A DNA stretch of 35,163 nucleotides. It comes from Candidatus Nomurabacteria bacterium RIFCSPHIGHO2_02_FULL_38_15 (GTDB taxonomy: Bacteria > Patescibacteriota > Minisyncoccia > Phycocordibacterales > UBA9973). The stretch's first letter is position 1, and each line of letters starts with the position of its first letter. Below are positions 10,844-35,163 of the stretch, in pieces. The stretch lies in assembly GCA_001785575.1 (NCBI GenBank), contig MFUC01000006.1, positions 1 to 35,163 of the forward strand, read 5' to 3'. The notes beneath the pieces were generated by a model that was not told the DNA's origin, searched no databases, and was given only the letters and a program-made list of their open reading frames with translations. The position numbers were made by a program, and so were the translations under genes.

Positions 10844-11287
10844 ATGAAGTCTAAAATCACTTTATTTGAAGGTCAAAACATAAGGCGAGAATGGGACGGC
10901 GAAAATGAGCTTTGGTATTTTTCAGTTGTTGATATTGTAAAAGCACTAACGGAGCAGTCAGATTTCCAAACAGCTCGAAATTATTGGAAAGTCTTAAAAC
11001 ACAGGCTTATTGCCGAAGGAAGTGAACTGGTTACAAAATGTAACCAGTTGAAAATGATAGCTGATGACGGCAAAATGCGAGAAACTGATGTTCTAGATAC
11101 AGAAAATATGCTTCGCTTGGTGCAATCTATTCCAAGTCCAAAAGCTGAACCATTCAAACTTTGGCTTGCGCAAGTTGGCTATGAAAGATTAGAGGAAACG
11201 GCTGACCCAGAGCTGGCTATTAATCGAGCGCTTAAAACATATTTTGTCGCAAGGACAGTCCTTGCGAATGGTTGCATAGTTTTTTGA
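10844..11287 (+). CDS. Bro-N domain protein, C-terminally truncated paralogue (possible gene remnant)
   Basis: FEGQNIRREWDGENELWYFSVVDIVKAL...LRLVQSIPSPKAEPFKLWLAQVGYERLEETADPE is nearly identical to the 30863-31540 protein. Homology stops after RALKTYF, followed by 13 unrelated codons and TGA. Confidence 0.65.
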   Translation: MKSKITLFEGQNIRREWDGENELWYFSVVDIVKALTEQSDFQTARNYWKVLKHRLIAEGSELVTKCNQLKMIADDGKMRETDVLDTENMLRLVQSIPSPKAEPFKLWLAQVGYERLEETADPELAINRALKTYFVARTVLANGCIVF

Positions 11288-15731: not shown

Positions 15732-15737
15732 ATGTAC

Positions 15738-16250
15738 ATGATCGATGCGCCGCATAAAATTTTGGCACAGTTAGTTATACACCCCGGGGCGTGTGTAATT
15801 GATTTTGGGGCGGGCTTTGGTACGTATTCATTACTACTTTCAGATATGGTTGGCCCCAAGGGTAGCGTTTTTGCCGTTGATGTACAAAGCCATTTAATTG
15901 ACCAAATAAAAAAGAGTGCGAATGATAAGGGTAAAAAAAATGTGTACCCCATGCATGCCGATGTTGAAAAATTAGGTGGCGTGCCATTAAATTCGGACGT
16001 AGCCGACTATATTTTTATTGTAAATGTTTTAAACGAAGTAGATGACAAAAGGATTGTTTTTGAAGAGGCTAAAAGGTTGTTAAAAAACTCGGGCCACCTA
16101 GTCGTTGTTGAGCATGCCAATACGCCCTTGCCAGGCATAAAAGAGTTTAAACTAAACGAATGTGAGGCGGTGGCCAAAAATATTGGCTTTAATAAAATTG
16201 AAAAAGTTGATGCGGGCGAATTTGCTTATGGTATAATATATCAAGCATAA
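15738..16250 (+). CDS. Class I SAM-dependent methyltransferase
   Basis: SAM-binding motif I is VIDFGAGFGTYS, followed by acidic post-I residues (VFAVDV). The start could instead be the ATG at 15732. Confidence 0.7.
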   Translation: MIDAPHKILAQLVIHPGACVIDFGAGFGTYSLLLSDMVGPKGSVFAVDVQSHLIDQIKKSANDKGKKNVYPMHADVEKLGGVPLNSDVADYIFIVNVLNEVDDKRIVFEEAKRLLKNSGHLVVVEHANTPLPGIKEFKLNECEAVAKNIGFNKIEKVDAGEFAYGIIYQA

Positions 16251-16253
16251 TAT

Positions 16254-17576
16254 ATGAAAGACGGACAAAGTAAAAAAAGATTTGCCATAATACTAGCCTT
16301 TGTGGGGGCGGGAGTTTTTATTTTAGGTGTCTTGTTCTTTTCGGGCAAATTGGGTGGCAACAATAGTAATACGGCCACAGCCCCTGAGGGTACAATTGTA
16401 GTATGGGGTACATTGCCTGATGAGGCTTTTAATAATGCCGTGCAAGTTATAACCAACAAGCAAAGCAAAATCGCAGTTTTGTATACGCAAGTTAAACCAG
16501 ATGAATTAAAATCTAAATTAGTTGAGGCAATTGCCTCGGATGTCAGCCCCGACATGATTGTGTCCGACACTGCAACTTTTTATAGTATCAAGCAATACAC
16601 CCAAGCCTTGCCCTATACGACCTACCCCGAGGCTGGCTTTAGGCAAAGCTTTTCAAATGCAACACATGACATGGTTGCACCCGAGGGTATTTTAGCTATA
16701 CCAATTGGTATTGATCCAATGATGATGTTTTATAACCGCGAAATCTTGGCGGCCGCCGGTTATGCCAACCCGCCAACTACTTGGGCCAACGTATACAGTA
16801 TGGCACCTGATATTATAAAAATTGAAAAAGGCCAACTAATTCGCCAGGAATTGTTGCCTTTTGGGCAGTATAAAAATGTTGATAATGCATGGGCCATACT
16901 TTCAACACTGTTTGCCCAATCACGCGTGCCAATTGCTAAAACTGACCCTACAATGGGTAAGGCCGTGAATATGGCTACATCTGACGTTGGTGAACTGTCC
17001 AATGCCGGGCAAAAAGTTTTAGAATTTTACACCCAATTCTCTGACCCCAAGAGCGAATTTTACACTTGGAACCGGTCAATGTTGGATTCAAAAAAAGAAT
17101 TTTTAGAGGGTCGGTTGGCTTTTTTACCAAACTTTGCCTCATTGACCAAAGACATTCGTGACCGCAACCCAAATTTGAATTTTGCCGTGGCCAGCATGCC
17201 CCAGTTAAATACTGACCCTAAATATCAGGCCACATTTGGTAATGTATATGTGGCTAGTGTTTTAAAAAAGACCACGAACCCCAATGCCGCCTATGCAATT
17301 TGGTTTGAAATGGCCGGGGCCGACTTTCAAAAGGCTTTTGCCCAAAGCCTAATGATGGCTCCGGCCCTAAACACACTACTAATGTTGCCACCTGAAACAA
17401 CCTATTTGCCGGTTGTGTATAAAAGCGCCCTGATTGCTAAAACTTGGTATAATGATGACATGCTTAAAACTAACCAAGCCTTTAATCAAATGATTGAAGG
17501 GGTCATTTCAGGCAAGCAAACACCCCAAGAGGCAATTTATCAGGCCGAAAGGATTTTAAGCGGCGATAACTTCTAA
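16254..17576 (+). CDS. Membrane-anchored extracellular solute-binding protein (family 1, sugar-type), orphan
   Basis: It has an N-terminal TM (FAIILAFVGAGVFILGVLFF). IVVWG..., MMFYNREILAAAGYANPPTTW and LAFLPNF follow the MalE-like SBP pattern. No permease or ATPase gene is adjacent. Confidence 0.65.
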   Translation: MKDGQSKKRFAIILAFVGAGVFILGVLFFSGKLGGNNSNTATAPEGTIVVWGTLPDEAFNNAVQVITNKQSKIAVLYTQVKPDELKSKLVEAIASDVSPDMIVSDTATFYSIKQYTQALPYTTYPEAGFRQSFSNATHDMVAPEGILAIPIGIDPMMMFYNREILAAAGYANPPTTWANVYSMAPDIIKIEKGQLIRQELLPFGQYKNVDNAWAILSTLFAQSRVPIAKTDPTMGKAVNMATSDVGELSNAGQKVLEFYTQFSDPKSEFYTWNRSMLDSKKEFLEGRLAFLPNFASLTKDIRDRNPNLNFAVASMPQLNTDPKYQATFGNVYVASVLKKTTNPNAAYAIWFEMAGADFQKAFAQSLMMAPALNTLLMLPPETTYLPVVYKSALIAKTWYNDDMLKTNQAFNQMIEGVISGKQTPQEAIYQAERILSGDNF

Positions 17577-17960
17577 ATGATCAAAAGAATTAAAAACAAA
17601 ATACTTTTTTTGCTAGCTTTAGGTAGTATATTTATTGGTGGGGGTGTCAGTGCCGCAGGACTTGTGCCATGCGAGGGAATTGACGATTGCAACTTTGACA
17701 CATTGATTTTGCTTTTAAACAATATTGCCAGTTTTATATTCTTTCGTTTACCTATTATATTATTGGTCGTGTTTTTTGCCTGGAACGGTATTAATTTAAT
17801 AATTTACCGCGACCGCCCAGCCTTTATGAAGCTTTTTAAAAAAAATATTTGGAATGTTTTGCTGGGTTACCTGCTGGTCGTGGGGGCATATTTGCTGGTT
17901 AAAACATTTATTACCATTATTGCTGGTCAAGACTTAACATTTAAGGTATTCTTTAATTAG
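17577..17960 (+). CDS. VirB2/TrbC-like T4SS pilin family protein (CPR-type), paralogue 1
   Basis: The ATG directly abuts the SBP stop (TAAATG). A signal peptide is followed by AGLVPCEGIDDCNFDTLILLLNNI and then two TM helices separated by a basic loop. Confidence 0.6.
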   Translation: MIKRIKNKILFLLALGSIFIGGGVSAAGLVPCEGIDDCNFDTLILLLNNIASFIFFRLPIILLVVFFAWNGINLIIYRDRPAFMKLFKKNIWNVLLGYLLVVGAYLLVKTFITIIAGQDLTFKVFFN

Positions 17961-17961
17961 T

Positions 17962-18444
17962 ATGAAAATTATGAATTCTAAAATATTTACAAATAATTTC
18001 AAGAGAGTTTTTATAAGTTTATTTTTTGTCAGCATTTTGTTTACTGGCACGTTGGTTGTAAATAACCAAAGTGCTTTTGCCGATAAACACGAAAAAGTTG
18101 ATGTTAAAGCTGACAAGGATGATGCCGACGTAAAAGCTGATGATCCAGCGGGCGCAAAACCAGGCCTACAAATAACCCTAACCAACCCTCTAAAATCAGA
18201 AAATCTAGAGGATTTTGTGCAAGTTGTGCTGGCGGTGATTCTTAAATTTTTAATCCCAATCTTGGCGATTTTGTTTATTTATACCGGCTTTCAGCTGGTT
18301 ATGTCAGGTGGTGACAAAGCTGCCAGGAAGACGGCTAAAGACAACTTCTTTAACCTAGTTATTGGGGCAGTGTTGATTTTGGGTGCTTGGACATTTGGTA
18401 ATGTTATATTAAATACATTAAGAGAAACTGGAATTTTAAACTAA
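17962..18444 (+). CDS. VirB2/TrbC-like pilin, paralogue 2 (long acidic N-terminal extension)
   Basis: The signal peptide ends in SAFA. A KADKDDADVKADD region follows, then FIYTGFQLVMSGGDKAARKTAKDNFFNLVIGAVLILGAW (TM-loop-TM). Confidence 0.6.
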   Translation: MKIMNSKIFTNNFKRVFISLFFVSILFTGTLVVNNQSAFADKHEKVDVKADKDDADVKADDPAGAKPGLQITLTNPLKSENLEDFVQVVLAVILKFLIPILAILFIYTGFQLVMSGGDKAARKTAKDNFFNLVIGAVLILGAWTFGNVILNTLRETGILN

Positions 18445-18449
18445 ATACT

Positions 18450-18842
18450 ATGATTAAAACAAAAAACATATTAAAAAAATCATTAAAAACTTTACCCCTA
18501 GCCTTTTTACCGCTCATAGCTTTTGCCCAAACTGGCAGTACTTTGTGCGGGCCAATTAAGTACTCTAAATCATTGCAATGGTATTTGTGCGAAGTGTACA
18601 AAATTATTGGCCAGTATTTAATACCTTTGTTAATGTTGGCGGCCACTGGGTTTTTTATTTACGGCATTGTAATGTTTATTAAAAATGCCAACAATGAAAC
18701 CAAGCGCACAGAGTACAAAAATTACATGACCTGGGGTATTGTGGCATTGTTTGTGATGGTTTCAGTTTGGGGTATTGTGGCGATTTTGGGCCAAATTGTG
18801 GGTACAGATACATCAGTTATTCCACAAATTCGGTATAAATAG
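18450..18842 (+). CDS. VirB2/TrbC-like pilin, paralogue 3
   Basis: The signal peptide ends in AFAQ. There is a Cys pair (LCGP...YLCE), then FFIYGIVMFIKNANNETKRTEYKNYMTWGIVALFVMVSVWGIV. Confidence 0.65.
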   Translation: MIKTKNILKKSLKTLPLAFLPLIAFAQTGSTLCGPIKYSKSLQWYLCEVYKIIGQYLIPLLMLAATGFFIYGIVMFIKNANNETKRTEYKNYMTWGIVALFVMVSVWGIVAILGQIVGTDTSVIPQIRYK

Positions 18843-18873
18843 TTGACTTTTTATTTATGATATATGCTATAAT
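18843..18873 (+). promoter_or_regulatory. Promoter TTGACT-19-TATAAT (TGc extended -10)
   Basis: ttgactttttatttatgatatatgctataat. The spacer is slightly long. Confidence 0.45.
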
Positions 18874-18918
18874 CTAACTATAAAGGTTTTTATTAGTAAA
18901 CATTTATTTAATTTAATT

Positions 18919-19305
18919 ATGAAAAAAGTATTATTGATTTTAGGTTCAGCCTTGGCACCAGTTTTAGCTTTTGCGCAAGCAACGCCTAATTTTGGGTATG
19001 TTACAAGTGGTGTTACTCAAATATACACCTTATTTACAACCTACCTTATACCAGGGTTAATGCTAATAGCTACGGGCTTCTTCATTTGGGGAGTTATTGG
19101 TTATATAAGGGCTAGCAGTGACGATGCCAAGAAGGAGGCTAAACACCGATTGGTTCAAAGCGTCATTGCCTTGGCCGTTATTGTATCAGTTTGGGGTATT
19201 ATTGCATTGTTGCAAAGTATTTTAGGTGTTAGGGCGTCATCAACAACAAATGTTGTTTGTCCTCCTGGGTATACTGCTGTTGGTGCACGTTGCCTACCTA
19301 TATAA
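18919..19305 (+). CDS. VirB2/TrbC-like pilin, paralogue 4 (C-terminal Cys-loop tail)
   Basis: Signal peptide MKKVLLILGSALAPVLAFAQ, then FFIWGVIGYIRASSDDAKKEAKHRLVQSVIALAVIVSVWGII, and a tail VVCPPGYTAVGARCLPI. Confidence 0.65.
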   Translation: MKKVLLILGSALAPVLAFAQATPNFGYVTSGVTQIYTLFTTYLIPGLMLIATGFFIWGVIGYIRASSDDAKKEAKHRLVQSVIALAVIVSVWGIIALLQSILGVRASSTTNVVCPPGYTAVGARCLPI

Positions 19306-19327
19306 ATAATAATGTTTATAAACCATT

Positions 19328-19633
19328 ATGTTTAACATTGCCTATGCTGAAACAGACTCAGTTGTAAATGCAATTTTTGCCAAAGTTGTTGATCCAGTAA
19401 TAAACTTTTTGTTTATCCTAGCCTTCCTATACTTTATTTATGGCATTGTTGTGTTTATTCAAAATGCTAACAACGAGGAAGCCCGTGCAAAAGGCAAACA
19501 GCATATGGTATGGGGGATTGTGGGCCTACTAATAATGTTTAGCGCCTTTACCATAATGCAAATTATTGTAAATACGCTTGACCTGGAATCGCCACCCAAT
19601 GGCCCAAATTACCGCCAAATTGACCAAAATTAA
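19328..19633 (+). CDS. VirB2/TrbC-like pilin, paralogue 5 (no signal peptide)
   Basis: YFIYGIVVFIQNANNEEARAKGKQHMVWGIVGLLIMFSAF is close to paralogue 3. The N-terminus is only MFNIAYA. An in-frame TAA at 19319-19321 prevents extension. Confidence 0.55.
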   Translation: MFNIAYAETDSVVNAIFAKVVDPVINFLFILAFLYFIYGIVVFIQNANNEEARAKGKQHMVWGIVGLLIMFSAFTIMQIIVNTLDLESPPNGPNYRQIDQN

Positions 19634-19648
19634 ATTCGTGTAAAATAA

Positions 19649-19676
19649 AAAAGCCCCCACCTAAATGGGGGCTTTT
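19649..19676. terminator. Bidirectional intrinsic terminator
   Basis: aaaagccccca-cctaaa-tgggggctttt, with A/T runs on both sides. It lies between the convergent pilin operon and the 19689 gene. Confidence 0.75.
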
Positions 19677-19688
19677 GGCAAGTGTTTG

Positions 19689-20393
19689 TTAAAAGACTCG
19701 CCATTCTCTTACTGTAGCTTCTCCTCTGACCTCTTCAAAAAGTACTCTACTCCCAACTCTGGCTCTTTCTGGGTCACCTTTTATTATTTGGTCTGTTTGA
19801 ATACCAAGCGAATCAGTGGTGAGCTTTTTCTCAAAACCATTGCCCCTAATCGAGACTTCTGAGTTTGGTTCAAGCATAACCCTAAATCTACCACCATCTA
19901 AAACGGTTGTTATAAAAACTCCGTTAATTTGGGTTTCAGTTGTGTCAGGCACTTGAGGTTTACTTTTGTCCATCAAACCTGATGCTGGTGGGTCTTTGGA
20001 CACAACGGGATTATTTTTGAACTCAAGGTATGTTACAAAAATTGGTATTATTACAAGAAGTATGTAATACCAACTTGAACTAACAAACCTCAAGAAATTT
20101 AAAATTACAGCTGTTGCTATTGCGACCAAGCTTATCCAAAATGCGAATGAGCCCATCCAAACATTCCATATGCCATCAAGGTGATACCTTACAATCATGT
20201 GAATCAAAATGATTGCAACAATTGGGCCAATTAGAAACAGCAAACTATTCCTGTTTCTGGCCATCCAATTTGGGTTGTTTGTGTTTCTGTTCTGTGGCGT
20301 TGTACCTGTACCTGAAAGGGACCACGCTGCTATAAATAGTGATATTATCACAATTACCAGCAGTACTATTATTACTATTGTTGTTGTTTCCAT
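19689..20393 (-). CDS. Four-TM membrane protein with a C-terminal beta-rich soluble domain (NfeD-like architecture)
   Basis: Four hydrophobic helices lie in the first ~125 aa. A Pro-rich linker follows, then an ~85-aa domain (INGVFITTVLDGGRFRVMLEPNSEVSIRGNG...). The NfeD assignment rests on architecture and neighbour only. Confidence 0.35.
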   Translation of the reverse strand: METTTIVIIVLLVIVIISLFIAAWSLSGTGTTPQNRNTNNPNWMARNRNSLLFLIGPIVAIILIHMIVRYHLDGIWNVWMGSFAFWISLVAIATAVILNFLRFVSSSWYYILLVIIPIFVTYLEFKNNPVVSKDPPASGLMDKSKPQVPDTTETQINGVFITTVLDGGRFRVMLEPNSEVSIRGNGFEKKLTTDSLGIQTDQIIKGDPERARVGSRVLFEEVRGEATVREWRVF

Positions 20394-20494: not shown

Positions 20495-22036
20495 CTAAGG
20501 CTTTTTTGGTTTTTTAGCCTCAACTTTACTTTTTAGGTGTTCGTCAACATTCAATATCATTGACGCATCACCACCCAGTGAAAGCAACTCGCTTTCTTTC
20601 AACTGTTCGGATATATACATACTATGGCCGTTATTCTCAGCAACAGCCTTGTATTTTTCTCTTATAACTGCGGTCTCAGCTTTGCCGATGTTTTCTTTCG
20701 CGGTAGATTCTGCGACAGATTTTGAAGTTATTCTTCGATTTTCTCCATCTTGCTGAACATCCAACTTTTCTTGTCTCACAACCTCAGCCTTTTTTAGGTA
20801 TACTTCTTTTTGCTCCTCCAATTGGATTTCTTTCATTGCTGCATTCTCAGCACTTTCAAAAAGTACTATTTCTACATCAATGATTGCAACTCCCACAGTA
20901 TAAACAAGGTGAATATCGTTTGCCGAATCCTTAGGAACAAACTGATCATCTTCAAATCTATGCCCAGATAATTCAATCAGCTTATTGTAAATCGAATCAC
21001 TTTCCAAGTCCTTGTACTGAGCTTCGCTGTTTAGACTTGTAAAATCTTTTGAAGCAACATAGTCACGACAAATGGATTCTATTTCTGCCTTAGCTTTTAC
21101 CAACCAATTACCGGGACTGTCATTTTTGAACAATTGTTTTTTAGGGAATATGGAGTGAAATGTAATTACAAAACCATAGTTAACCCTTTCTAACCCCTTT
21201 GTTTCAAGGTCTCTTACTGTGACATACTGTTGTTGGCGTATTCGTAAGCCATAAACCAACTCTTCTCGAAGGATCGGGTCAATATTGTTTGGATCTTTTA
21301 TTTTAGTCCATTCCCAGTTGTAAGTGAAGATTCTTCTAATGGGTGGAATTCCAACCCAGTAAAGTCCTCCAAAATAGGTCGGCATTGAGTTCTTACCTTT
21401 AACAAGTATTCCGTCTATTTCATTTTCGTTACTTGCTTTGTTTACGTAATAACCCCTAGGCGTTAATGTTTTAATAAGTTGATTACTTTGGTCAACAACA
21501 AATTTTATATCATTTTCACCAACACCTGTGAACCAAAGAGTTCTAAACTGAGCATTCAAACCAAAAACTTTGGATAGTGCCAAGTAAAGAGGCCAATACA
21601 TAACAGACCACAAGGCAAGTATGGTTATACCAGCCAATATGTTATCAGTAATCGAAATTAGTAAACCTAACACAAAACCTAATACGAAGTAAAAGGTCTT
21701 TAAGATTATTTTTGTCACAGATACTTGTTCTATAGAAGATTTTTCCCTCCAATTTTTCAAAAACTTCTTGAACCATGACTCTTTTTTAGGTCTTGGATTT
21801 GATGGTTGAGGGTTAAGAATTGGCATAAGTTCCTCAAAATGAGCAAATTCCGCTTCTTCTTTTTCGATAGGTTTTCCTGAAAATAAGTCTATTAGACCCA
21901 ATATCAGGAATATAGTTACGATAAATATAACCGCAACTACTAGGGCAAGCGAGGGTTTGTTAAGTACAACCCATGCTATAACTAGCAATGGCAAAAATAT
22001 GCACATCACCACAGAATCATTCTTATTCTTTTTCAT
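20495..22036 (-). CDS. Four-TM membrane protein with an SPFH/band-7-like domain and a Glu/Lys-rich coiled-coil tail
   Basis: Two pairs of TM helices are followed by a ~230-aa domain ending in VGVAIIDVEIVLFESAENAAMKEIQLEEQKE.... An A/E/K-rich helix follows. This resembles the stomatin/flotillin layout, but the call is by eye only. Confidence 0.4.
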   Translation of the reverse strand: MKKNKNDSVVMCIFLPLLVIAWVVLNKPSLALVVAVIFIVTIFLILGLIDLFSGKPIEKEEAEFAHFEELMPILNPQPSNPRPKKESWFKKFLKNWREKSSIEQVSVTKIILKTFYFVLGFVLGLLISITDNILAGITILALWSVMYWPLYLALSKVFGLNAQFRTLWFTGVGENDIKFVVDQSNQLIKTLTPRGYYVNKASNENEIDGILVKGKNSMPTYFGGLYWVGIPPIRRIFTYNWEWTKIKDPNNIDPILREELVYGLRIRQQQYVTVRDLETKGLERVNYGFVITFHSIFPKKQLFKNDSPGNWLVKAKAEIESICRDYVASKDFTSLNSEAQYKDLESDSIYNKLIELSGHRFEDDQFVPKDSANDIHLVYTVGVAIIDVEIVLFESAENAAMKEIQLEEQKEVYLKKAEVVRQEKLDVQQDGENRRITSKSVAESTAKENIGKAETAVIREKYKAVAENNGHSMYISEQLKESELLSLGGDASMILNVDEHLKSKVEAKKPKKP

Positions 22037-22320: not shown

Positions 22321-22402
22321 GCCCAGGTGGCGAAATTGGTAGACGCACTGCTCTTAGGAAGCAGCGAGGTGACTCATGAAGGTTCAAGTCCTTTCCTGGG
22401 CA
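22321..22402 (+). tRNA. tRNA-Leu (anticodon TAG), long variable arm
   Basis: Acceptor GCCCAGG/CCTGGGC, anticodon stem CTGCT/AGCAG with loop CTTAGGA, T loop TTCAAGT and discriminator A. No CCA is encoded. Confidence 0.9.
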
Positions 22403-22415
22403 CAAAGGTTATACG

Positions 22416-23057
22416 CTAACCATGTGCTAGAATTTTGTTAGCAATAACTCTTTTTCTACTTAGAGCAATGCTATTTCTTGTGTATAGTATGGGTAGTATT
22501 TTTATTGCATCATACTTACCGAAAACAAGCGTGTACACAGAAGATTTCTTGGGTTTATGAATTGATCCACCACTTATCTTGTAAAGCTTACTTACTTGAG
22601 AAAGTATCCAAACAAGAAAGTTTTTACTAGCAGAAGATAACCTGAGTTTATATTGAGGTTGCTTACTTTGTGAATGTTTAAAAATCGAAATGCAACCATC
22701 ACCATCTATACAGCCTCTTAAAAAATCTTTGAAGTATTTTTCAGGTATCTTTAACACATCAATAGTTTTTGACTTATTTGTAGTTAAGCCAATACTTACT
22801 AAAAATTCAAAAAAGTTCACATCGCTAAATTGTAATACAAAATATTTTTTATCATGTTCTCCACCACGTGCTTTTTTAGAATATTTCATTTCTATTTTTA
22901 AACCTATTGCGCAGTTACTAATCATTTCTAGATCTTTAGACGTGATAACTACATGCCTTTGGTCGGGTGACAAATTACCATCAGTCGCAATAACGCCTAT
23001 TGTATAAGCAAAATTAGAATTCCACTTTGTTTGAACCTTTGATTTTCTGTGGGCCAT
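22416..23057 (-). CDS. LAGLIDADG homing endonuclease, two-motif monomeric type, free-standing
   Basis: Two LAGLIDADG motifs are present: FAYTIGVIATDGNL and FLRGCIDGDGCI. It lies between tRNA-Leu(TAG) and tRNA-Cys on the opposite strand. Confidence 0.8.
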   Translation of the reverse strand: MAHRKSKVQTKWNSNFAYTIGVIATDGNLSPDQRHVVITSKDLEMISNCAIGLKIEMKYSKKARGGEHDKKYFVLQFSDVNFFEFLVSIGLTTNKSKTIDVLKIPEKYFKDFLRGCIDGDGCISIFKHSQSKQPQYKLRLSSASKNFLVWILSQVSKLYKISGGSIHKPKKSSVYTLVFGKYDAIKILPILYTRNSIALSRKRVIANKILAHG

Positions 23058-23142: not shown

Positions 23143-23214
23143 GGTCTAGTCGCCAAGTGGTAAGGCAAGAGTCTGCAAAACTCTTATACGGCGGTTCGAT
23201 TCCGCCCTAGACCT
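23143..23214 (+). tRNA. tRNA-Cys (anticodon GCA)
   Basis: Acceptor GGTCTAG/CTAGACC, anticodon stem AGAGT/ACTCT with loop CTGCAAA, T arm GGCGG-TTCGATT-CCGCC and discriminator U. No CCA is encoded. Confidence 0.9.
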
Positions 23215-23225
23215 CAAAAATTTTA

Positions 23226-30862: not shown

Positions 30863-31540
30863 ATGACTAAAAAAACAAAAAACAGAATAGCGATTTTTGA
30901 AAATAAAGAAATTCGTCGTCATTGGGATGATGAAAAAGAGGAATGGTATTTTTCTGTTGTTGATATTATTTTTGCATTAACAGGCAGTATTAATCCACAA
31001 GTTTATTGGCGTGTTTTAAAGAAACGCCTTATAGACGAAGGCTCAAATGAAACCGTTACAAAGTGTAACGAGTTGAAAATGATAGTCATAGATGGCAAAA
31101 TACGTATTACTGATGTAGCTGATACAAAAACAGTTCTTCGGCTTGTGCAGTCTATCCCTTCGCCAAAAGCTGAACCTTTCAAATTGTGGCTTGCAAGAGT
31201 TGGCTATGAAAGATTGGAGGAAACAGCCGATCCTGAAATAGGCATACACCGAGCATTGAAAACTAAAAATTTAAAAGGATTAAAAAAAGAAAGCTTACGA
31301 GACAATATGACCAATCTGGAACTTGTACTAAATATGCTTGCGGAAACAGCAACTAATGAAATACACAAAAAAGAAAATTCAAAAGGTATGGTAAAATTAA
31401 AATCTGATGCCAAGGCAGGAGGTAGTGTTGCAGGAGGAGCTCGTAAAAAACTTGAAAAGCGTCTCAAGCATCCCATAGTATCAAAATCGAATTTCTTGAA
31501 AAATAAAGAAAATGTAAAGAGTTTAAAAGGTAAAAAATAA
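30863..31540 (+). CDS. Bro-N domain protein, longer paralogue with a C-terminal LRDNMTNLELVLNMLAE module
   Basis: FENKEIRRHWDDEKEEWYFSVVDIIFAL...LRLVQSIPSPKAEPFKLWLARVGYERLEETADPE is the Bro-N-type N-terminal domain. The C-terminal part (SLRDNMTNLELVLNMLAETATNEIHK...GGSVAGGARKKLE) matches what I recall of this family. Confidence 0.7.
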   Translation: MTKKTKNRIAIFENKEIRRHWDDEKEEWYFSVVDIIFALTGSINPQVYWRVLKKRLIDEGSNETVTKCNELKMIVIDGKIRITDVADTKTVLRLVQSIPSPKAEPFKLWLARVGYERLEETADPEIGIHRALKTKNLKGLKKESLRDNMTNLELVLNMLAETATNEIHKKENSKGMVKLKSDAKAGGSVAGGARKKLEKRLKHPIVSKSNFLKNKENVKSLKGKK

Positions 31541-31553
31541 GTTTATAAGCAAA

Positions 31554-34500
31554 ATGGCAAAATCAATAAACAAAATTTTAATACTCTCAGCCTTCCTTTT
31601 TCTTTTTTCCGCAAGTCATGCCTTTGCCGCGAATAGGTATTGGGTAGGGGGAACTGGTAACTGGAGTGACGATGATAACCATTGGTCTACAACGGATGGT
31701 GGTGCTCCAGGTGATGGTAATGTTCCGAGTGGTTCGGACAATGTAATTTTTAATACTAATTCAGGGTCTGCGGATTATACTGTAACTGTTACATCTGGAG
31801 CAACAAGTCTTAATTTAACAGCATCTGCTCCATCTTCAGGTAATTTGACAGTAAATGTTGCTAATACATTTACTGTGAATGGAAGTTTTACATTATATTC
31901 TGGTTTAGTACTTAGTAATGCTTCAACTATTTTGTTTTCTGGCTCTGGCACAACTAAGACGGTTACGATGGCAGGAACTACTTATGCAGGTCGCATGTTG
32001 TTTAACACAAGTGGAGCGAAATGGACTTTACAAGATACATTTTCAATTACAGATGATATTCAATTAACAGCAGGAACGCTGGATACTAACGGGCAAGCTG
32101 TTACAGCTAGAGCACTTTTTACATTTGGCTCAAGCACTAAAGTCCTTACATTTGGAGCTAGCGTAATCACTTTAACAGGATCCTCTGGTTTAGGAAATGT
32201 TGTTGACTTTTCTGGAGGCAATTTGACTGTTAATGCGAACACTTCAACAATTAAATTAACTGATTCTAGTACAAGTACAAAAACAATCGGTGGTAACGGA
32301 AAGACGTTTAATAAAATATGGATAGCTACAGGTAGCACTGGTTCGACAAACATAACTGGATCAAACACTTATGATGAAATTTATATTGATGGTAATGATA
32401 GGATTGTTAAATTTACCGCTGGAACAACTCAAACATTTACATCAGCGGGTCCTGGAATTACAACAAATGGAACTGGCATAACATTGGGTTCTATTACGTC
32501 TGCAACTCACACACTTACAAAGCCATCTGGTACTGTATCTATTTCAAATACAACACTTTCATATTCTGTTGCACAAGGTGGGGCACCTTGGAGAGCATAT
32601 ACTTCTAATACTAATGTTGATGGAGGAAATAATTCAGGTTGGTTTTTTACGCCATTTAGCATTTCAGGAACAGCCAATGGCAACAATGGAGCCACCGTAA
32701 AAGTTGCAATCAATGGCACAGTCCAAGCCCAAACGGGAACAATTGCAAGTTCTGCTTGGAGTATAGCAAGTGTGACTGAACCATCAGTCAACGACATCAT
32801 TACTGTATGGGTTGATGGTGCAACTGCTGGAGATGTTTCAGATGCCAATGAATCAACCGCTGTGACGAAATACAATGCTGGCGATGTGACTGGTATGGTC
32901 CTTAACACTGGAGTTTTGACCGTGGGTAGTAGTCAAAATACAAGTGTGTCCACGACAAATATGACTCAATATGAAAATAGTGATGACGAAGATGTGATGC
33001 ATAGTTCAACGAGTGGAGCATTAACTGTAGATGCTGGGGGTGTATATAGTGGAGAAACATTATCAATATTGGCAAGCAATACTTTAACCGTGGCTAGTGC
33101 ATCGACTGAAACTGTCACGACTGAGAAAATTACTAATGCCGGGACAATTACATCAACAGGTAGTCCGACATATACTTTAACAGGAACATCAGGAACTTTG
33201 TTTACAAATACAGGCACATTTACAGCGGACAGTTCAACTGTAACTATGAATCCTGATGGTGCAGTTACACTTACGTCAGGTAGTATCACATTTTATAATT
33301 TAACCTTAAATCCTACAATTACAAGTAGTCGGGTATATACTTTTGGTTCTAGTGCTTTGGCGATTAATGGAGATTTTAATATTAATCCAACAGCAGGATC
33401 AGCTCTTTCTTTGACTGTGAATGCAGGTGCAAATATTACTGTTGCAAGTGGCAAAACAACAACAATTTCAAGAGCAAATTCAGCTACATCAATCCTTGAT
33501 ATGCGTCCATCAGCATCTGATTATGATTTATCCACTGGTTTATTAAATGTAGCAACTGGTGGAACTCTTGATTTAACTTCTGTGGCGTCTGAAACTGCCC
33601 TGACTTTAACTGCAACATCTGGAACACTATTTACACTTGCTGGTACATTTACAATTACCAGTGGTACACCGACGGTTGTAATGTCAGGTAATGGTGATGC
33701 TACGATCAACTCAGGTGCGATCACATTTTATAATTTAACTTCTTCAGGTACAGGCACAAAAACCCTTGGAGCAGCTATCGAAGCTGGTGGAGCCCTGACT
33801 ATTTCAGCTGGAACTTTTGCTGGAAGCTCATACACCATTACACTTTCAGGTACTGGCACGGTATTTAATAACACGGCGACATATTCGGCAGGAACTTCAA
33901 CAATCAAATTTACAAATAATTCTTCTAGCGCTAAAACTTTTGCTGGTGGTGGTTCGACATTTAATAACTTTTGGTATGCACCTGGATCGGGTACTGGATC
34001 GTTAACAATTACAGGTTCTAACACTTTTGCTGATTTTAAAGATGATGGAACAGCTGCTCATTCAATATTGTTTACAACTGGAACGACTCAAACAGTTACG
34101 ACATTTACGGTTAATGGTACTGCCGGGAATTTAATTACAATCAACAGTACCGATACTGGTACCCATGCATTAGTAAAGTCTGGTGGTGGGACTATTACTT
34201 CAGATTATTTAAGCATTCAACACTCAGTTGCTACTCCAACTTCAACGTGGCTGGCCACCAACAGTACAAACAATCAAGCTGTTACAACTGCCGGCAGTGG
34301 TTGGTATTTTGGAGCTTTTAATGCCAATCCTGATACGCCAACATCTCTCGGTGCCACTGCCTACGTTAACGGCTCACTAGGCAATGACAATACCCCTACA
34401 CTTACTTTTACGCTAGCCGACAGTGACGTAGCCGATACTGTAAAATTCCAAATTCAAATTGATGACAGTTCAGATTTTGCTTCGGCTGTTGTGGACTATA

Positions 34501-35163
34501 CTTCTGCACTGGCCGCACAAGGTAGCGCCTCATTCACTGTTGGTCAAGCCGCTGGTTCGGGCACATATACTACCGGTTCCTCTGGTCAAACACTTAACGA
34601 CACAAGTTATTATTGGCGAGTCAAAGCCATAGATAATAGTGACGCTGCTTCAAGCTATGCTACGGCCAATTCTGGAAGTGTTGCATTTATTCTAGAAACT
34701 GTTGTGCCAACTATTACAAACGTCTCCTCTGACAAAACTAACGGTACATATACCACAGGTGAAGTCATTGATATAGATGTTACATTCTCTGAAGCTGTCA
34801 CTTCAACCGGTAATGTGACCGTAACTTTAGAAACTGGCACCACTGACCGAACTTGTACATTTACGGTCTCAGCCAGTACGACCGGTACATGTAACTATAC
34901 TGTCCAAGCCGGGGATACCACTTCTGACTTAACGGTCTCAACCATCTCAGGTACGATTGCTGATGCTGCCGGCAATGCCGTCTCTGACTTTGCCCCAGCT
35001 ACTAATTTAGCCGCTAACAAAGCTTTGGTCATTGACACCACGGCTCCGACTATTACAAACGTCTCTTCTTCTATCCCTTCTTCATCCACAACAACAGCCA
35101 CCATCACGTGGACTACCGACGAAGCCGCATCTTCGATTGTTGAATATGGCGAAACAACAAGCT
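31554..35163 (+). CDS. Giant secreted repeat surface protein (beta-helix-like repeats, FN3-like and Ig-like domains), 3' partial, >=1203 codons
   Basis: It is not in the supplied ORF track. I translated the frame by hand from ATG 31554 to the window end, spot-checking the register at 32040, 33300, 34200, 34620, 34680, 34980 and 35040, and found no stop. The signal peptide is MAKSINKILILSAFLFLFSASHAFA|ANRYWVGGTGNWSDDDNHWS. The body is a Thr/Ser/Gly/Asn-rich repeat region. The C-terminal part has YYWRVKAID (FN3-like), an Ig-like segment (TNGTYTTGEVIDIDVTFSEAV...YTVQAGDTTSDL...IADAAGNA) and TATITWTTDEAASSIVEYG (FN3 start). Confidence 0.85.
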   Translation, partial: MAKSINKILILSAFLFLFSASHAFAANRYWVGGTGNWSDDDNHWSTTDGGAPGDGNVPSGSDNVIFNTNSGSADYTVTVTSGATSLNLTASAPSSGNLTVNVANTFTVNGSFTLYSGLVLSNASTILFSGSGTTKTVTMAGTTYAGRMLFNTSGAKWTLQDTFSITDDIQLTAGTLDTNGQAVTARALFTFGSSTKVLTFGASVITLTGSSGLGNVVDFSGGNLTVNANTSTIKLTDSSTSTKTIGGNGKTFNKIWIATGSTGSTNITGSNTYDEIYIDGNDRIVKFTAGTTQTFTSAGPGITTNGTGITLGSITSATHTLTKPSGTVSISNTTLSYSVAQGGAPWRAYTSNTNVDGGNNSGWFFTPFSISGTANGNNGATVKVAINGTVQAQTGTIASSAWSIASVTEPSVNDIITVWVDGATAGDVSDANESTAVTKYNAGDVTGMVLNTGVLTVGSSQNTSVSTTNMTQYENSDDEDVMHSSTSGALTVDAGGVYSGETLSILASNTLTVASASTETVTTEKITNAGTITSTGSPTYTLTGTSGTLFTNTGTFTADSSTVTMNPDGAVTLTSGSITFYNLTLNPTITSSRVYTFGSSALAINGDFNINPTAGSALSLTVNAGANITVASGKTTTISRANSATSILDMRPSASDYDLSTGLLNVATGGTLDLTSVASETALTLTATSGTLFTLAGTFTITSGTPTVVMSGNGDATINSGAITFYNLTSSGTGTKTLGAAIEAGGALTISAGTFAGSSYTITLSGTGTVFNNTATYSAGTSTIKFTNNSSSAKTFAGGGSTFNNFWYAPGSGTGSLTITGSNTFADFKDDGTAAHSILFTTGTTQTVTTFTVNGTAGNLITINSTDTGTHALVKSGGGTITSDYLSIQHSVATPTSTWLATNSTNNQAVTTAGSGWYFGAFNANPDTPTSLGATAYVNGSLGNDNTPTLTFTLADSDVADTVKFQIQIDDSSDFASAVVDYTSALAAQGSASFTVGQAAGSGTYTTGSSGQTLNDTSYYWRVKAIDNSDAASSYATANSGSVAFILETVVPTITNVSSDKTNGTYTTGEVIDIDVTFSEAVTSTGNVTVTLETGTTDRTCTFTVSASTTGTCNYTVQAGDTTSDLTVSTISGTIADAAGNAVSDFAPATNLAANKALVIDTTAPTITNVSSSIPSSSTTTATITWTTDEAASSIVEYGETTS
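32297..32649 (+). repeat. Intragenic ~118-aa module, copy 1 (GKTFNKIW...GNNSGWFF)
   Basis: It aligns by eye with 33951-34310. Shared landmarks are TFNxxW, (N/T)ITGSNT(Y/F), FT(A/T)GTTQT(F/V)T, a conserved His plus a KxxGT motif (THTLTKPSGT vs THALVKSGGGT) and a terminal SGW(F/Y)F. Confidence 0.7.
33168..33305 (+). repeat. Intragenic ~46-aa module, copy 1 (TYTLTGTSGTLFTNTGTFT...SGSITFYNLT)
   Basis: It aligns with 33597-33740. The 17-nt string acattttataatttaac is identical at 33288-33304 and 33723-33739. Confidence 0.7.
33597..33740 (+). repeat. Intragenic ~46-aa module, copy 2 (ALTLTATSGTLFTLAGTFT...SGAITFYNLT)
   Basis: See 33168-33305. Confidence 0.7.
33951..34310 (+). repeat. Intragenic ~118-aa module, copy 2 (GSTFNNFW...TAGSGWYF)
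   Basis: See 32297-32649. Confidence 0.7.

Follow-up and report, generated by a model that had tools for sequence, protein, structure and literature searches.

Earlier work on Patescibacteria had already described pilin arrays and a chromosomal T4SS encoded at another site (PMC12102498). That T4SS is MPF-FATA-like and usually lies near dnaA, VirB4 occurs in 2,417 of 3,035 assemblies, and the arrays, of 2 to 11 genes, are often apart from virB4 (PMC12102498). The pilin series of Southlakia is essential (PMC10633639), and in cultured Paceibacteria T4SS pilins are among the top-expressed secreted-protein genes (PMC10936435). The sole described system coupling solute-binding proteins (SBPs) to pilin-like subunits is the Sulfolobus bindosome (PMC3047682).

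Here, we show that a methyltransferase gene, a gene for a membrane-tethered MalE-like SBP, and an ordered set of PF18895 genes form a module conserved across the class Paceibacteria (Parcubacteria). Both the ordered architecture and the linkage of pilin arrays to the SBP and methyltransferase appear to be new; we found no published mention of this linkage. In hundreds of ultra-small parasitic bacteria, a transporter-less sugar-binding-type receptor is co-encoded with ordered pilins and a methyltransferase. The module is a concrete, testable clue to the purpose of the enigmatic T4SS in these bacteria.

Organization and conservation of the module

The window, which is the whole 35,163-nucleotide stretch that we analyzed, comes from a housekeeping part of a Paceibacteria (CPR) genome. 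The initial annotation had placed an SBP gene and five small VirB2-like genes at 16254 to 19633, and all six plus-strand open reading frames were recovered exactly (Table 1). As it had also read, the SBP stop codon (TAA, 17574 to 17576) is followed without a gap by the first pilin ATG at 17577, and the gaps after the first and second pilin genes are 1 and 5 nt. In 56/79 species, the first pilin gene starts −10 to +15 nt from the SBP stop, which favors this ATG over the gene caller's TTG at 17610. The adjacency of SBP and pilins stood, but a SAM methyltransferase gene with its stop codon 3 nt upstream of the SBP start had been missed. The operon begins at least one gene before the SBP, at this methyltransferase, the first gene conserved in the module, whose best PDB match is the uncharacterized SAM methyltransferase 3dh0. 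The genes of the module are tightly or translationally coupled.

Table 1. Features of the module and its transcription signals
Feature	Positions	Strand	Description
Class-I SAM-dependent methyltransferase, 172 aa	15732-16250	+	Pfam Methyltransf_31/11/25, Ubie_methyltran
Membrane-anchored MalE-like (family-1) SBP, 440 aa	16254-17576	+	phmmer, AF2, Foldseek
Pilin paralogue 1, front class	17577-17960	+	Predicted signal peptide, GLVPCEGIDDC Cys-pair motif, two TM helices
Pilin paralogue 2, front class	17962-18444	+	Predicted signal/anchor segment, ~45-aa charged extracellular extension, two TM helices
Pilin paralogue 3, core class	18450-18842	+	Predicted signal peptide (AFA/Q, cleaved at the slash), Cys33/Cys47, two TM helices; PF18895 35.9 bits
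Internal sigma70-like promoter candidate	18843-18873	+	TTGACT-N19-TGcTATAAT, TGn extended −10, read from sequence
Pilin paralogue 4, core class, penultimate orthologue	18919-19305	+	Predicted signal peptide, two TM helices, C-terminal Cys114/Cys125; PF18895 32.6 bits
Pilin paralogue 5, terminal class, 101 aa	19328-19633	+	Leaderless, two TM helices only; PF18895 35.1 bits
GC-rich hairpin, intrinsic terminator	19649-19676	both	Common to convergent transcription units

The promoter-like site proposed inside the array is present. Our consensus scanner missed it because its spacer is 19 nt and the scanner covers 16 to 18 nt. The hairpin beyond the array had been described as a bidirectional terminator. 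It does fold on both strands (−19.4 kcal/mol and z = −2.8 on the plus strand; −19.6 kcal/mol and z = −3.3 on the minus strand), but the terminator scanner reports it solely for the minus strand, where the U-tract is better.

Conservation was assessed from both ends of the module. With the SBP as seed, 2 to 8 pilin genes (mode of 5) directly followed it in 61/61 species loci with room, defined as at least 3.5 kb downstream. With pilins as seed, the SBP was upstream in 33/33 metagenome loci with room, and the same was true for 3/3 distant pilin homologues. The adjacency that the initial annotation had set as its own test is conserved in all relatives with room, and this recurrence in each of the related species examined goes beyond chance. 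Across 1.3 Mb, a single pilin-family open reading frame lay outside an array. The methyltransferase gene was immediately 5' of the SBP in 75/77 species loci, with a 4-nt overlap in 15 of these. The module was whole although flanking synteny was broken in two loci (L091 and L007), and the methyltransferase stayed with the SBP there, where GyrA synteny was lost.

Position-specific classes of VirB2-like proteins

Profile searches support the assignment of the five small proteins to the VirB2-like T4SS_pilin family. Proteins 2 to 5 score 30.9 to 35.9 bits against PF18895 (T4SS_pilin), passing the Pfam cutoff of 26.6 bits, but paralogue 1 alone reaches 19.2 bits and falls below it. Jackhmmer, which retrieved the same ~448 open reading frames when seeded with any of the five, joins paralogue 1 to the family. 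By these searches, paralogue 1 is a divergent member of the same family as paralogues 2 to 5; identity among the five is 22 to 49%. Among array members, 93/95 match PF18895 and 24/95 match TrbC (best, 8e-8). Paralogue 2 (PF18895, 30.9 bits) scores 21.3 bits against TrbC and 35.6 bits against NF045849. Against the PDB, the family profile has TraM, the pilin of the N-pilus, as its top match, with an E of 0.001 only, and a fold search of the pilin model against the PDB was uninformative. We know of no filament made of a PF18895 protein that has been demonstrated experimentally.

The two-TM layout read from the translations was found in all five products, with a signal-like segment in proteins 1 to 4 and the two helices alone in protein 5. 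The GLVPC..C motif reported for paralogue 1 occupies residues 28 to 38. In the AF2 model of paralogue 3, helices 42-78 and 83-118 form a hairpin (pLDDT of 80), and the core of this protein is 39% identical to that of paralogue 4 and 49% identical to that of paralogue 5.

Comparison across species showed that the paralogues are old, position-specific classes: front, core, and a leaderless last one, which lies behind the internal promoter candidate. The diagonal of the position matrix for positions 1 to 5 was 0.61/0.44/0.37/0.74/0.90, versus 0.2 by chance. The best cross-species match of paralogue 1 was always array position 1 (35/35), paralogue 2 corresponds to positions 1 and 2 in other species, and position 4 matched position 4 in 74% of cross-species comparisons. 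Paralogue 5 matched the last array position in 73/78 species and in 90% of position-matrix comparisons. The last-position protein has two hydrophobic segments only in 70/74 species (median length, 95.5 aa). A [LIVM][LIVMA]PxC..C motif occurs in 25/79 position-1 proteins and in just two cases elsewhere. A 45- to 400-nt gap precedes the penultimate pilin gene in 59/74 species, and promoter matches of at least 10/12 were found in 27% of these pre-penultimate gaps versus 1.8% of random segments of the same length. The front subunits have extracellular N-terminal modules; FN3-like repeats fused to the pilin domain at two loci (L082 and L024) count in favor of this exposure.

A membrane-tethered SBP without a transporter nearby

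The family-1 assignment of the SBP held up. Phmmer against the PDB matched MalE (E ~1e-7), and Foldseek with the AF2 model (pLDDT of 88.5, pTM of 0.83) returned oligosaccharide SBPs (E ~1e-22, TM up to 0.79). Most of its 382 homologues carry PF13416/PF01547; the SBP itself has no Pfam match at E ≤ 1. It consists of an N-terminal TM anchor (residues ~8 to 32, nt 16275 to 16349), a short disordered linker (33 to 45), and a two-lobe alpha/beta body. The protein contains no Cys and so is not a lipoprotein, and its N terminus lacks the Gly-1 and Glu+5 of a type IV pilin-like class III signal. Conservation in the anchor equals that in the lobes (F10, 0.98; Q11, 0.80; F18, 0.86; G25, 0.81; F29, 0.93), and the conserved residues fall on one face of the helix. 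The tether between membrane and body is short, at 10 to 15 residues. The MalE maltose-contacting N-lobe residues are mostly unconserved, with D154 (equivalent to E111) alone kept, which makes the ligand class putative. Neither the window nor six annotated relatives nor a motif scan of 80 species loci showed an ABC permease or ATPase near the SBP.

Proposed mechanism and related systems

Taken together, we believe that the best reading is a surface module that would couple ligand capture to T4SS-derived pilin assembly, and we give it about an even chance (roughly 0.5). The initial annotation had left the assembly machinery unexplained and had seen no VirB4, VirB6, VirB11, ABC permease, or ATPase gene in the window. 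These absences were borne out, VirD4 is likewise missing from the window, and no T4SS machinery genes occur at the loci of six relatives with Pfam annotation. Because of this, the link between pilins and T4SS comes from family homology and the literature rather than from this genome. For the phylum, the published answer, from other genomes, is the chromosomal MPF-FATA-like T4SS (PMC12102498).

The pilin-like subunits would enter the membrane through Sec/YidC and be processed by signal peptidase I. The chromosomal MPF-FATA-type T4SS (VirB4/VirB6/VirB3-like), in Patescibacteria usually encoded elsewhere, near dnaA, would draw them from the membrane pool into a short heteromeric filament or stalk across the wall. 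The front subunits could be distal as adhesin carriers, with the last two, separately promoted, as the bulk. The SBP would remain at the membrane, its conserved helix packing on the pilin hairpins or the T4SS platform. By capturing a host-derived, probably carbohydrate-type ligand, it would tie host recognition or nutrient capture to the apparatus. The short tether counts against the SBP riding on the filament, and it suits an ordinary SBP for a permease encoded elsewhere equally well.

Such an ordinary ABC-importer SBP would serve a distant carbohydrate permease/ATPase and share the pilin operon through a strong housekeeping unit (gyrA-MTase-...), both products being abundant envelope proteins. 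We regard this as unlikely, even though the complete two-lobe MalE-like fold resembles bona fide ABC SBPs and monoderm ABC SBPs typically have a membrane anchor and a short tether. Orphan SBPs with distant permeases exist, such as PrgZ with the chromosomal Opp system. Patescibacteria are also reported to have many energy-dependent solute uptake systems (PMC11665869). However, the SBP-pilin adjacency is obligate in both directions and outlasts synteny breaks, the frequent 4-nt overlaps suggest stoichiometric co-production, and one-face conservation would be unusual in a passive anchor. SBP genes normally adjoin their transporter genes, yet none of the 80 species has a permease or ATPase near the SBP. 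We are more doubtful still that the two-TM proteins form a membrane pore or platform without a pilus or T4SS. In this view they and the SBP, possibly with the methyltransferase as a cytoplasmic trap for the substrate, would make up a self-contained complex for uptake or sensing that is not of the ABC type. The hairpin proteins are the sole conserved membrane proteins co-encoded with the SBP, and the short tether, the conserved TM face, and the tightly coupled methyltransferase would all fit. The module is also never beside T4SS genes at the loci examined, and PF18895 filaments have never been seen; one paper speaks of no more than the "potential to elaborate conjugative pili" (PMC12857230). 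Nevertheless, the family is homologous to VirB2/TrbC and ICE pilin-like proteins, and other Patescibacteria have members of it inside their T4SS clusters, where they are essential (PMC10633639, PMC12102498). The FN3 fusions on front subunits suit surface display better, and the module has no energy-coupling component.

It is very improbable that there is no functional link at all and that the adjacency is inherited gene order in a slowly rearranging, streamlined genome core. The whole neighborhood (LepB, Pth, S1, MBL, GyrA ... RbfA, IF-2) is indeed syntenic across the class, but the flanks are lost or rearranged far more often (GyrA retained in 69 loci, RbfA/IF-2 in 38, LepB in 29) than the methyltransferase or the pilins. 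Start and stop codons overlap, and the module outlasts rearrangement (L091). The SBPs of the compared species are only ~30 to 35% identical, and at such divergence the order of unlinked genes is seldom preserved.

Among known systems, the Sulfolobus bindosome (Bas) is similar in that sugar-binding proteins need a group of small pilin-like proteins for their surface function (Zolghadr et al. 2011, PMC3047682). However, the Bas pilin-like proteins and the signal peptides of Sulfolobus SBPs belong to the type IV pilin (class III) kind, with PilB/PilC-type assembly, whereas the small proteins here are VirB2-like, and Sulfolobus SBPs have ABC transporters. T4SS-linked orphan SBPs include the PrgZ/TraC pheromone binders of enterococcal conjugative plasmids and ChvE, which acts in ChvE-VirA sugar sensing in Agrobacterium; like the SBP here, they are permease-less SBPs encoded with or signaling to a T4SS. 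Unlike it, PrgZ binds peptides as an OppA-like family-5 protein and relies on the Opp permease of the host, ChvE is not transcribed together with the pilin, and neither is joined to a pilin array or methyltransferase.

The diderm VirB2/TrbC/TraM pilins (PF04956; pKM101 N-pilus TraM, PDB 8cw4) share a signal peptide, two hydrophobic helices, a short charged loop, and a small mature protein, with weak but specific profile similarity. The array here differs in its monoderm organism, its lack of adjacent virB3/virB4, its one leaderless paralogue, the N-terminal Cys-pair knobs or FN3 repeats of some paralogues, and the putative nature of its filament. The Mycoplasma/Mollicutes ICE "Mbov_0395 family pilin-like conjugal transfer protein" NF045849 gave near-threshold scores, with the lowest E-values among the scanned libraries for paralogues 2, 3, and 5 (35.6 to 38.5 bits, E of 7e-10 to 6e-9, all below the curated cutoff of 40 bits); paralogue 4 scored 28.3 bits, weaker than its PF18895 match. 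Those proteins likewise come from a monoderm lineage with an MPF-FATA-type T4SS, but they are single genes on mobile elements beside conjugation genes. The Patescibacteria T4SS pilin arrays (Southlakia epibionticum SEML1_0006-0019; Quinonero-Coronel et al. 2025, PMC12102498; Wang et al. 2023, PMC10633639) are also tandem PF18895/PF04956 two-TM proteins in sets of 2 to 11 genes with low paralogue identity, chromosomal, in a monoderm CPR bacterium, and without relaxase association. In contrast, the array described here lies in a housekeeping block outside any T4SS cluster, in fixed linkage with a SAM methyltransferase and a MalE-like SBP, and its paralogues are class-wide position-specific orthologues, not merely variable copies.

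Conservation of the methyltransferase-SBP-pilin module

The initial annotation described an orphan solute-binding protein (SBP) gene leading five tandem VirB2/TrbC-like pilin genes. We found this arrangement to be real and its interpretation supported. All six ORFs lay exactly at the coordinates first proposed, with the SBP stop codon (TAA, 17574-17576) directly followed by an ATG at 17577 and the next two intergenic gaps measuring 1 and 5 nt. The promoter-like site in front of paralogue 4 was also present and reads TTGACT-N19-TGcTATAAT; our consensus scanner did not call it because the spacer is 19 nt. For the proposed bidirectional terminator, both strands gave the hairpin, with a folding energy of about −19.5 kcal/mol; the scanner called it on the minus strand only. 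In public gene calls, pilin 1 begins with a TTG at 17610 (116 aa), with the ATG at 17577 as the alternative (127 aa). We favor the ATG as the likely start because of the stop/start coupling seen across species and the basic n-region (MIKRIKNK) that it would provide. The first reading overlooked a class-I S-adenosylmethionine (SAM) methyltransferase of 172 aa that ends 3 nt ahead of the SBP.

Features of the window and of two related loci
Feature	Coordinates	Strand	Remarks
Bro-N domain protein	10844-11287	+	Amid otherwise housekeeping genes
SAM methyltransferase	15732-16250	+
SBP	16254-17576	+
Pilin paralogue 1	17577-17960	+
Pilin paralogue 2	17962-18444	+
Pilin paralogue 3	18450-18842	+
Promoter-like site	18843-18873
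Pilin paralogue 4	18919-19305	+
Pilin paralogue 5	19328-19633	+
Terminator hairpin	19649-19676
Membrane protein	19689-20393	−	234 aa; convergent to array; no family assignment
Membrane protein	20495-22036	−	513 aa; convergent to array; no family assignment
tRNA-Leu	22321-22403
LAGLIDADG homing-endonuclease-like ORF	22416-23057	−	Free-standing; inside cluster of four tRNA genes
tRNA-Cys	23143-23215
Bro-N domain protein	30863-31540	+	Amid otherwise housekeeping genes
Giant ORF	31557-35162	+	At least 1,202 aa, runs off right end; clear signal peptide (MAKSINKILILSAFLFLFSASHAFA); no Pfam match
Enlarged front pilins, loci L082 and L024	L082, 11335-13548; L024, 11336-12883 and 12899-14026		Positions 1 and 2; 375-737 aa

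A scan of one genome per species matched the SBP family at least 556 times; 80 loci were retrieved. Downstream sequence of at least 3.5 kb was available in 61 loci, and in every one of them the SBP was followed on the same strand by two to eight pilin-family genes (mode, 5); the adjacency on which the initial annotation depended is thus kept in these relatives. Only one pilin-family ORF occurred elsewhere in 1.3 Mb. In 56 of 79 species, the first pilin gene began −10 to +15 nt from the stop codon of the SBP; in 11 of these the two genes overlapped by 4 nt. Conversely, metagenome loci seeded by the pilin core motif carried the SBP upstream in every case with room for it (33/33), and it also lay upstream of three distant pilin homologues. 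The methyltransferase was immediately 5′ of the SBP in 75 of 77 loci, overlapping it by 4 nt in 15. Its homology search returned 14 matches, from close relatives only and all but one at least 68% identical; the solved structure closest to it is an uncharacterized protein. We conclude that a conserved, tightly coupled methyltransferase-SBP-pilin module exists in Paceibacteria, the largest class of Patescibacteria.

The rest of the window encodes housekeeping functions (DnaE, RNase HII, Fmt, Def, HisRS, LepB, Pth, S1, GyrA, RbfA, IF-2, ClpB, a metallo-beta-lactamase [MBL]-fold protein, DUF4446, a cysteine-desulfurase-like aminotransferase, and six tRNAs), and several metagenomes yielded assemblies of the same contig. 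The two membrane proteins convergent to the array were considered as module partners and excluded as lineage specific, with homologues in only one to three of the 80 loci. The LAGLIDADG ORF, flanked by tRNA-Leu and tRNA-Cys genes, occupies the same site in other assemblies of the contig and has a homologue in only one of the 80 loci. Bro-N domains are typical of phage and virus genes, and the first of the two Bro-N proteins has a counterpart in none of these loci. The ORF running off the right end probably encodes a giant protein that is secreted or displayed at the surface.

Pilin family membership and ordered subunit classes

The initial annotation assigned all five products to VirB2/TrbC-type pilins. 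By profile, this held for paralogues 2 to 5, which scored 30.9, 35.9, 32.6, and 35.1 bits against PF18895 (T4SS_pilin; cutoff, 26.6), and failed for paralogue 1 at 19.2 bits. Iterative jackhmmer searches from each of the five, including paralogue 1, gathered the same set of about 448 ORFs. When array members from other species were sampled, 93 of 95 matched PF18895 and 24 of 95 matched TrbC/VirB2 (PF04956). Hydropathy agreed with the two-helix layout first described: two transmembrane (TM) helices follow a signal peptide, and the short charged loop between them is cytoplasmic. Paralogue 5 is the one of the five without a signal peptide. In the AlphaFold2 (AF2) pilin model, helices 42-78 and 83-118 pair as a hairpin; Foldseek with the paralogue 3 model returned nothing significant (helical hairpin; best E = 0.5). 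The top PDB match of the family profile was TraM, the N-pilus pilin of pKM101, with a modest E value of 0.001 for a match covering the signal peptide and first helix. The paralogues share 22 to 49% pairwise identity, with paralogue 1 matching none of the others by BLAST, and the five tandem genes fit the definition of Patescibacteria VirB2-like arrays (2 to 11 genes of low paralogue identity; PMC12102498). The pilin array is a known kind of feature.

Against NCBIfam NF045849, the “pilin-like conjugal transfer protein” family of Mycoplasma ICEs, paralogues 2, 3, and 5 scored 35.6 to 38.5 bits (cutoff, 40), above their TrbC scores, and paralogue 4 scored 28.3. This similarity hints that VirB2-like proteins already occur in MPF-FATA-type monoderm systems, a point relevant to the proposal, made in PMC12102498, that pilins of Patescibacteria were co-opted from diderm type IV secretion systems (T4SSs).

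We examined subunit order with a position matrix built on 35 five-gene arrays, having dropped simple best-hit orthogroup strings as noisy. The best cross-species match fell at the same position in 61, 44, 37, 74, and 90% of cases for positions 1 to 5 (chance, 20%). Positions 1 and 2 intermix, position 3 resembles position 4, and the LVPC..C motif is essentially confined to position 1. The last protein was leaderless in 70 of 74 species, and the penultimate gene was preceded by a gap of 45 to 400 nt in 59 of 74. Sigma70-like matches of at least 10/12 occurred in 27% of those gaps versus 1.8% of controls, a contrast to which the AT-richness of the gaps contributes because the controls are mostly coding sequence. 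Taken together, the pilin paralogues are not interchangeable but form ordered, distinct classes.

In five loci, 0.8 to 2.7 kb separated the SBP from the pilins, and foreign genes were considered as the cause. The two that we inspected, L024 and L082, instead contain enlarged front pilins (positions 1 and 2). After the signal peptide, each carries a series of FN3-like (Pur_ac_phosph_N) repeats and an [LI][IV]PC..C motif, and the T4SS_pilin domain forms the C terminus. This architecture places the N terminus of these subunits outside the cell, able to display adhesin-like modules, and shows the front subunits as surface exposed. We saw no report of such pilin-adhesin fusions in the papers examined.

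The SBP and its membrane anchor

Pfam returned no match for the 440-aa SBP at an E value of ≤1, and homologues 72 to 75% identical to it do match SBP_bac_8. The hmmscan filters may lose true but divergent family members, as with this protein. The proposed family-1 identity was borne out by a phmmer match to Escherichia coli MalE (N-lobe only; E of ~1e-7) and by the fold, since the AF2 model matched oligosaccharide-binding ABC SBPs (Foldseek E of ~1e-22; TM score up to 0.79). Most of the 382 detectable homologues are annotated SBP_bac_1 or SBP_bac_8 (PF01547/PF13416), and wherever a source is named, it is either a member of Patescibacteria or an unclassified bacterial MAG.

Built from the homologue alignment, the model (pLDDT, 88.5; pTM, 0.83) starts with a TM helix (residues 3-29), which a disordered linker connects to a two-lobed alpha/beta body with a hinge. 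This agrees with the earlier claim of membrane anchoring and with retention at the surface; the SBP has no cysteine and is therefore TM anchored, not lipidated. The linker is short and variable across relatives. Conservation in the TM segment equals that in the lobes (mean top-residue frequency, 0.51 versus 0.47 to 0.55), with F10, Q11, F18, G25, and F29 nearly invariant and spaced approximately along one helical face. This pattern suggests that the helix has a specific intramembrane partner. We considered a class III (prepilin) signal for the invariant F10-Q11 and excluded it, as Gly−1 and Glu+5 are lacking; the residue preceding Phe10 is P, N, T, R, K, L, or S and never predominantly Gly. 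About 50 alignment columns are at least 90% conserved, including D154 (at the position of MalE E111) and several Trp, Tyr, and Asn residues. In the comparison with MalE, equivalents of W62, D65, and R66 were not conserved.

Interpretation and comparison with known systems

Our main reading, with a probability of roughly 0.5, is that T4SS-assembled pilins and the SBP cooperate in recognizing or capturing host ligands. The pilin-like subunits would be assembled by a T4SS encoded elsewhere, the SBP would act together with the pilin assembly, and the last two subunits, having their own promoter, may be its bulk components. One rival is that the SBP serves a distant ABC permease. The window lacks MalF/G-type permeases and an ABC ATPase, as the term orphan implied. 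A motif scan of the 80 species loci found no EAA-loop permease ORF and a single ABC-motif ORF (861 aa, L015), and the loci of six annotated relatives held no cognate permease or ATPase. The SBP is a MalE-like receptor whose anchor is conserved and which has no nearby transporter, and we consider service to a distant permease unlikely.

The absence of VirB4, VirB6, VirB11, and VirD4 from the window was confirmed, and genes of VirB3, VirB4, or VirB6 type were found neither there nor within ±10 kb in the six annotated relatives. A membrane complex independent of any T4SS would fit such loci, and we hold this explanation to be somewhat less probable again. That the gene order is merely inherited, with no functional link, seems improbable to us. 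Flanking genes are retained much less (GyrA in 69 loci, RbfA/IF-2 in 38, and LepB in 29), and the methyltransferase-SBP pairing survives displacement of GyrA in two loci (L007 and L091). Explanations outside these carry a similarly small weight.

Cooperation between pilins and SBP could also be part of something larger, a T4SS-derived nutrient-capture organelle or bacterial “bindosome” of VirB2-like subunits. The MalE-like receptor would dock by its conserved TM helix on a heteromeric pilin channel or stalk and supply it with glycans from the host, or some other ligand, for import, and the coupled cytoplasmic methyltransferase might modify cargo or subunits. As a whole, this picture is doubtful. 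If true, it would be the first SBP-dependent function of any type IV secretion apparatus and would explain why CPR bacteria without biosynthetic pathways retain a T4SS as an essential system.

In Paceibacteria, the pilin array is firmly tied to a ligand-binding receptor and a methyltransferase, and the pilins make up a fixed set of distinct subunits. CPR pilin paralogy should hence not be read solely as antigenic or host-range variation. The question shifts from what the apparatus secretes to testable ideas of host-glycan recognition or uptake, for which the ectodomain of the SBP, the terminal pilin that lacks a leader, and the FN3-bearing front pilins are singled out.

A survey of 3,035 Patescibacteria assemblies (Quinonero-Coronel et al. 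2025, PMC12102498) detected VirB4 in 2,417; these proteins form a clade within MPF-FATA, and the gene often lies elsewhere than the loci studied here, near dnaA. VirB2-like pilins occur in 1,948 assemblies, 1,135 of which have pilins near virB4, and 441 pilin arrays of 2 to 11 genes were described (PMC12102498). Wang et al. (2023, PMC10633639) showed that Southlakia requires the T4SS and its pilin series as essential components, and T4SS pilins are among the most highly expressed genes for secreted proteins in cultured Paceibacteria (Kuroda et al. 2024, PMC10936435). The field describes the role of the Patescibacteria T4SS as completely unknown, although the only species tested cannot do without the system (PMC11665869, PMC10633639). 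Our nonexhaustive search of the Patescibacteria literature, including PMC12102498, PMC10633639, and PMC10936435, found no report linking an SBP or methyltransferase to pilins. Neither the obligate coupling of the array to both nor its fixed order of subunits throughout Paceibacteria seems to have been described before. In concept, the Sulfolobus bindosome (Bas; PMC3047682) comes closest. Its SBPs carry a class III signal peptide, whereas the SBP here does not. Bas has type IV pilin-like parts and PilB/PilC-type assembly; no PilB/PilC gene is present at the window locus, and the module here is instead built of VirB2-like two-TM hairpins.
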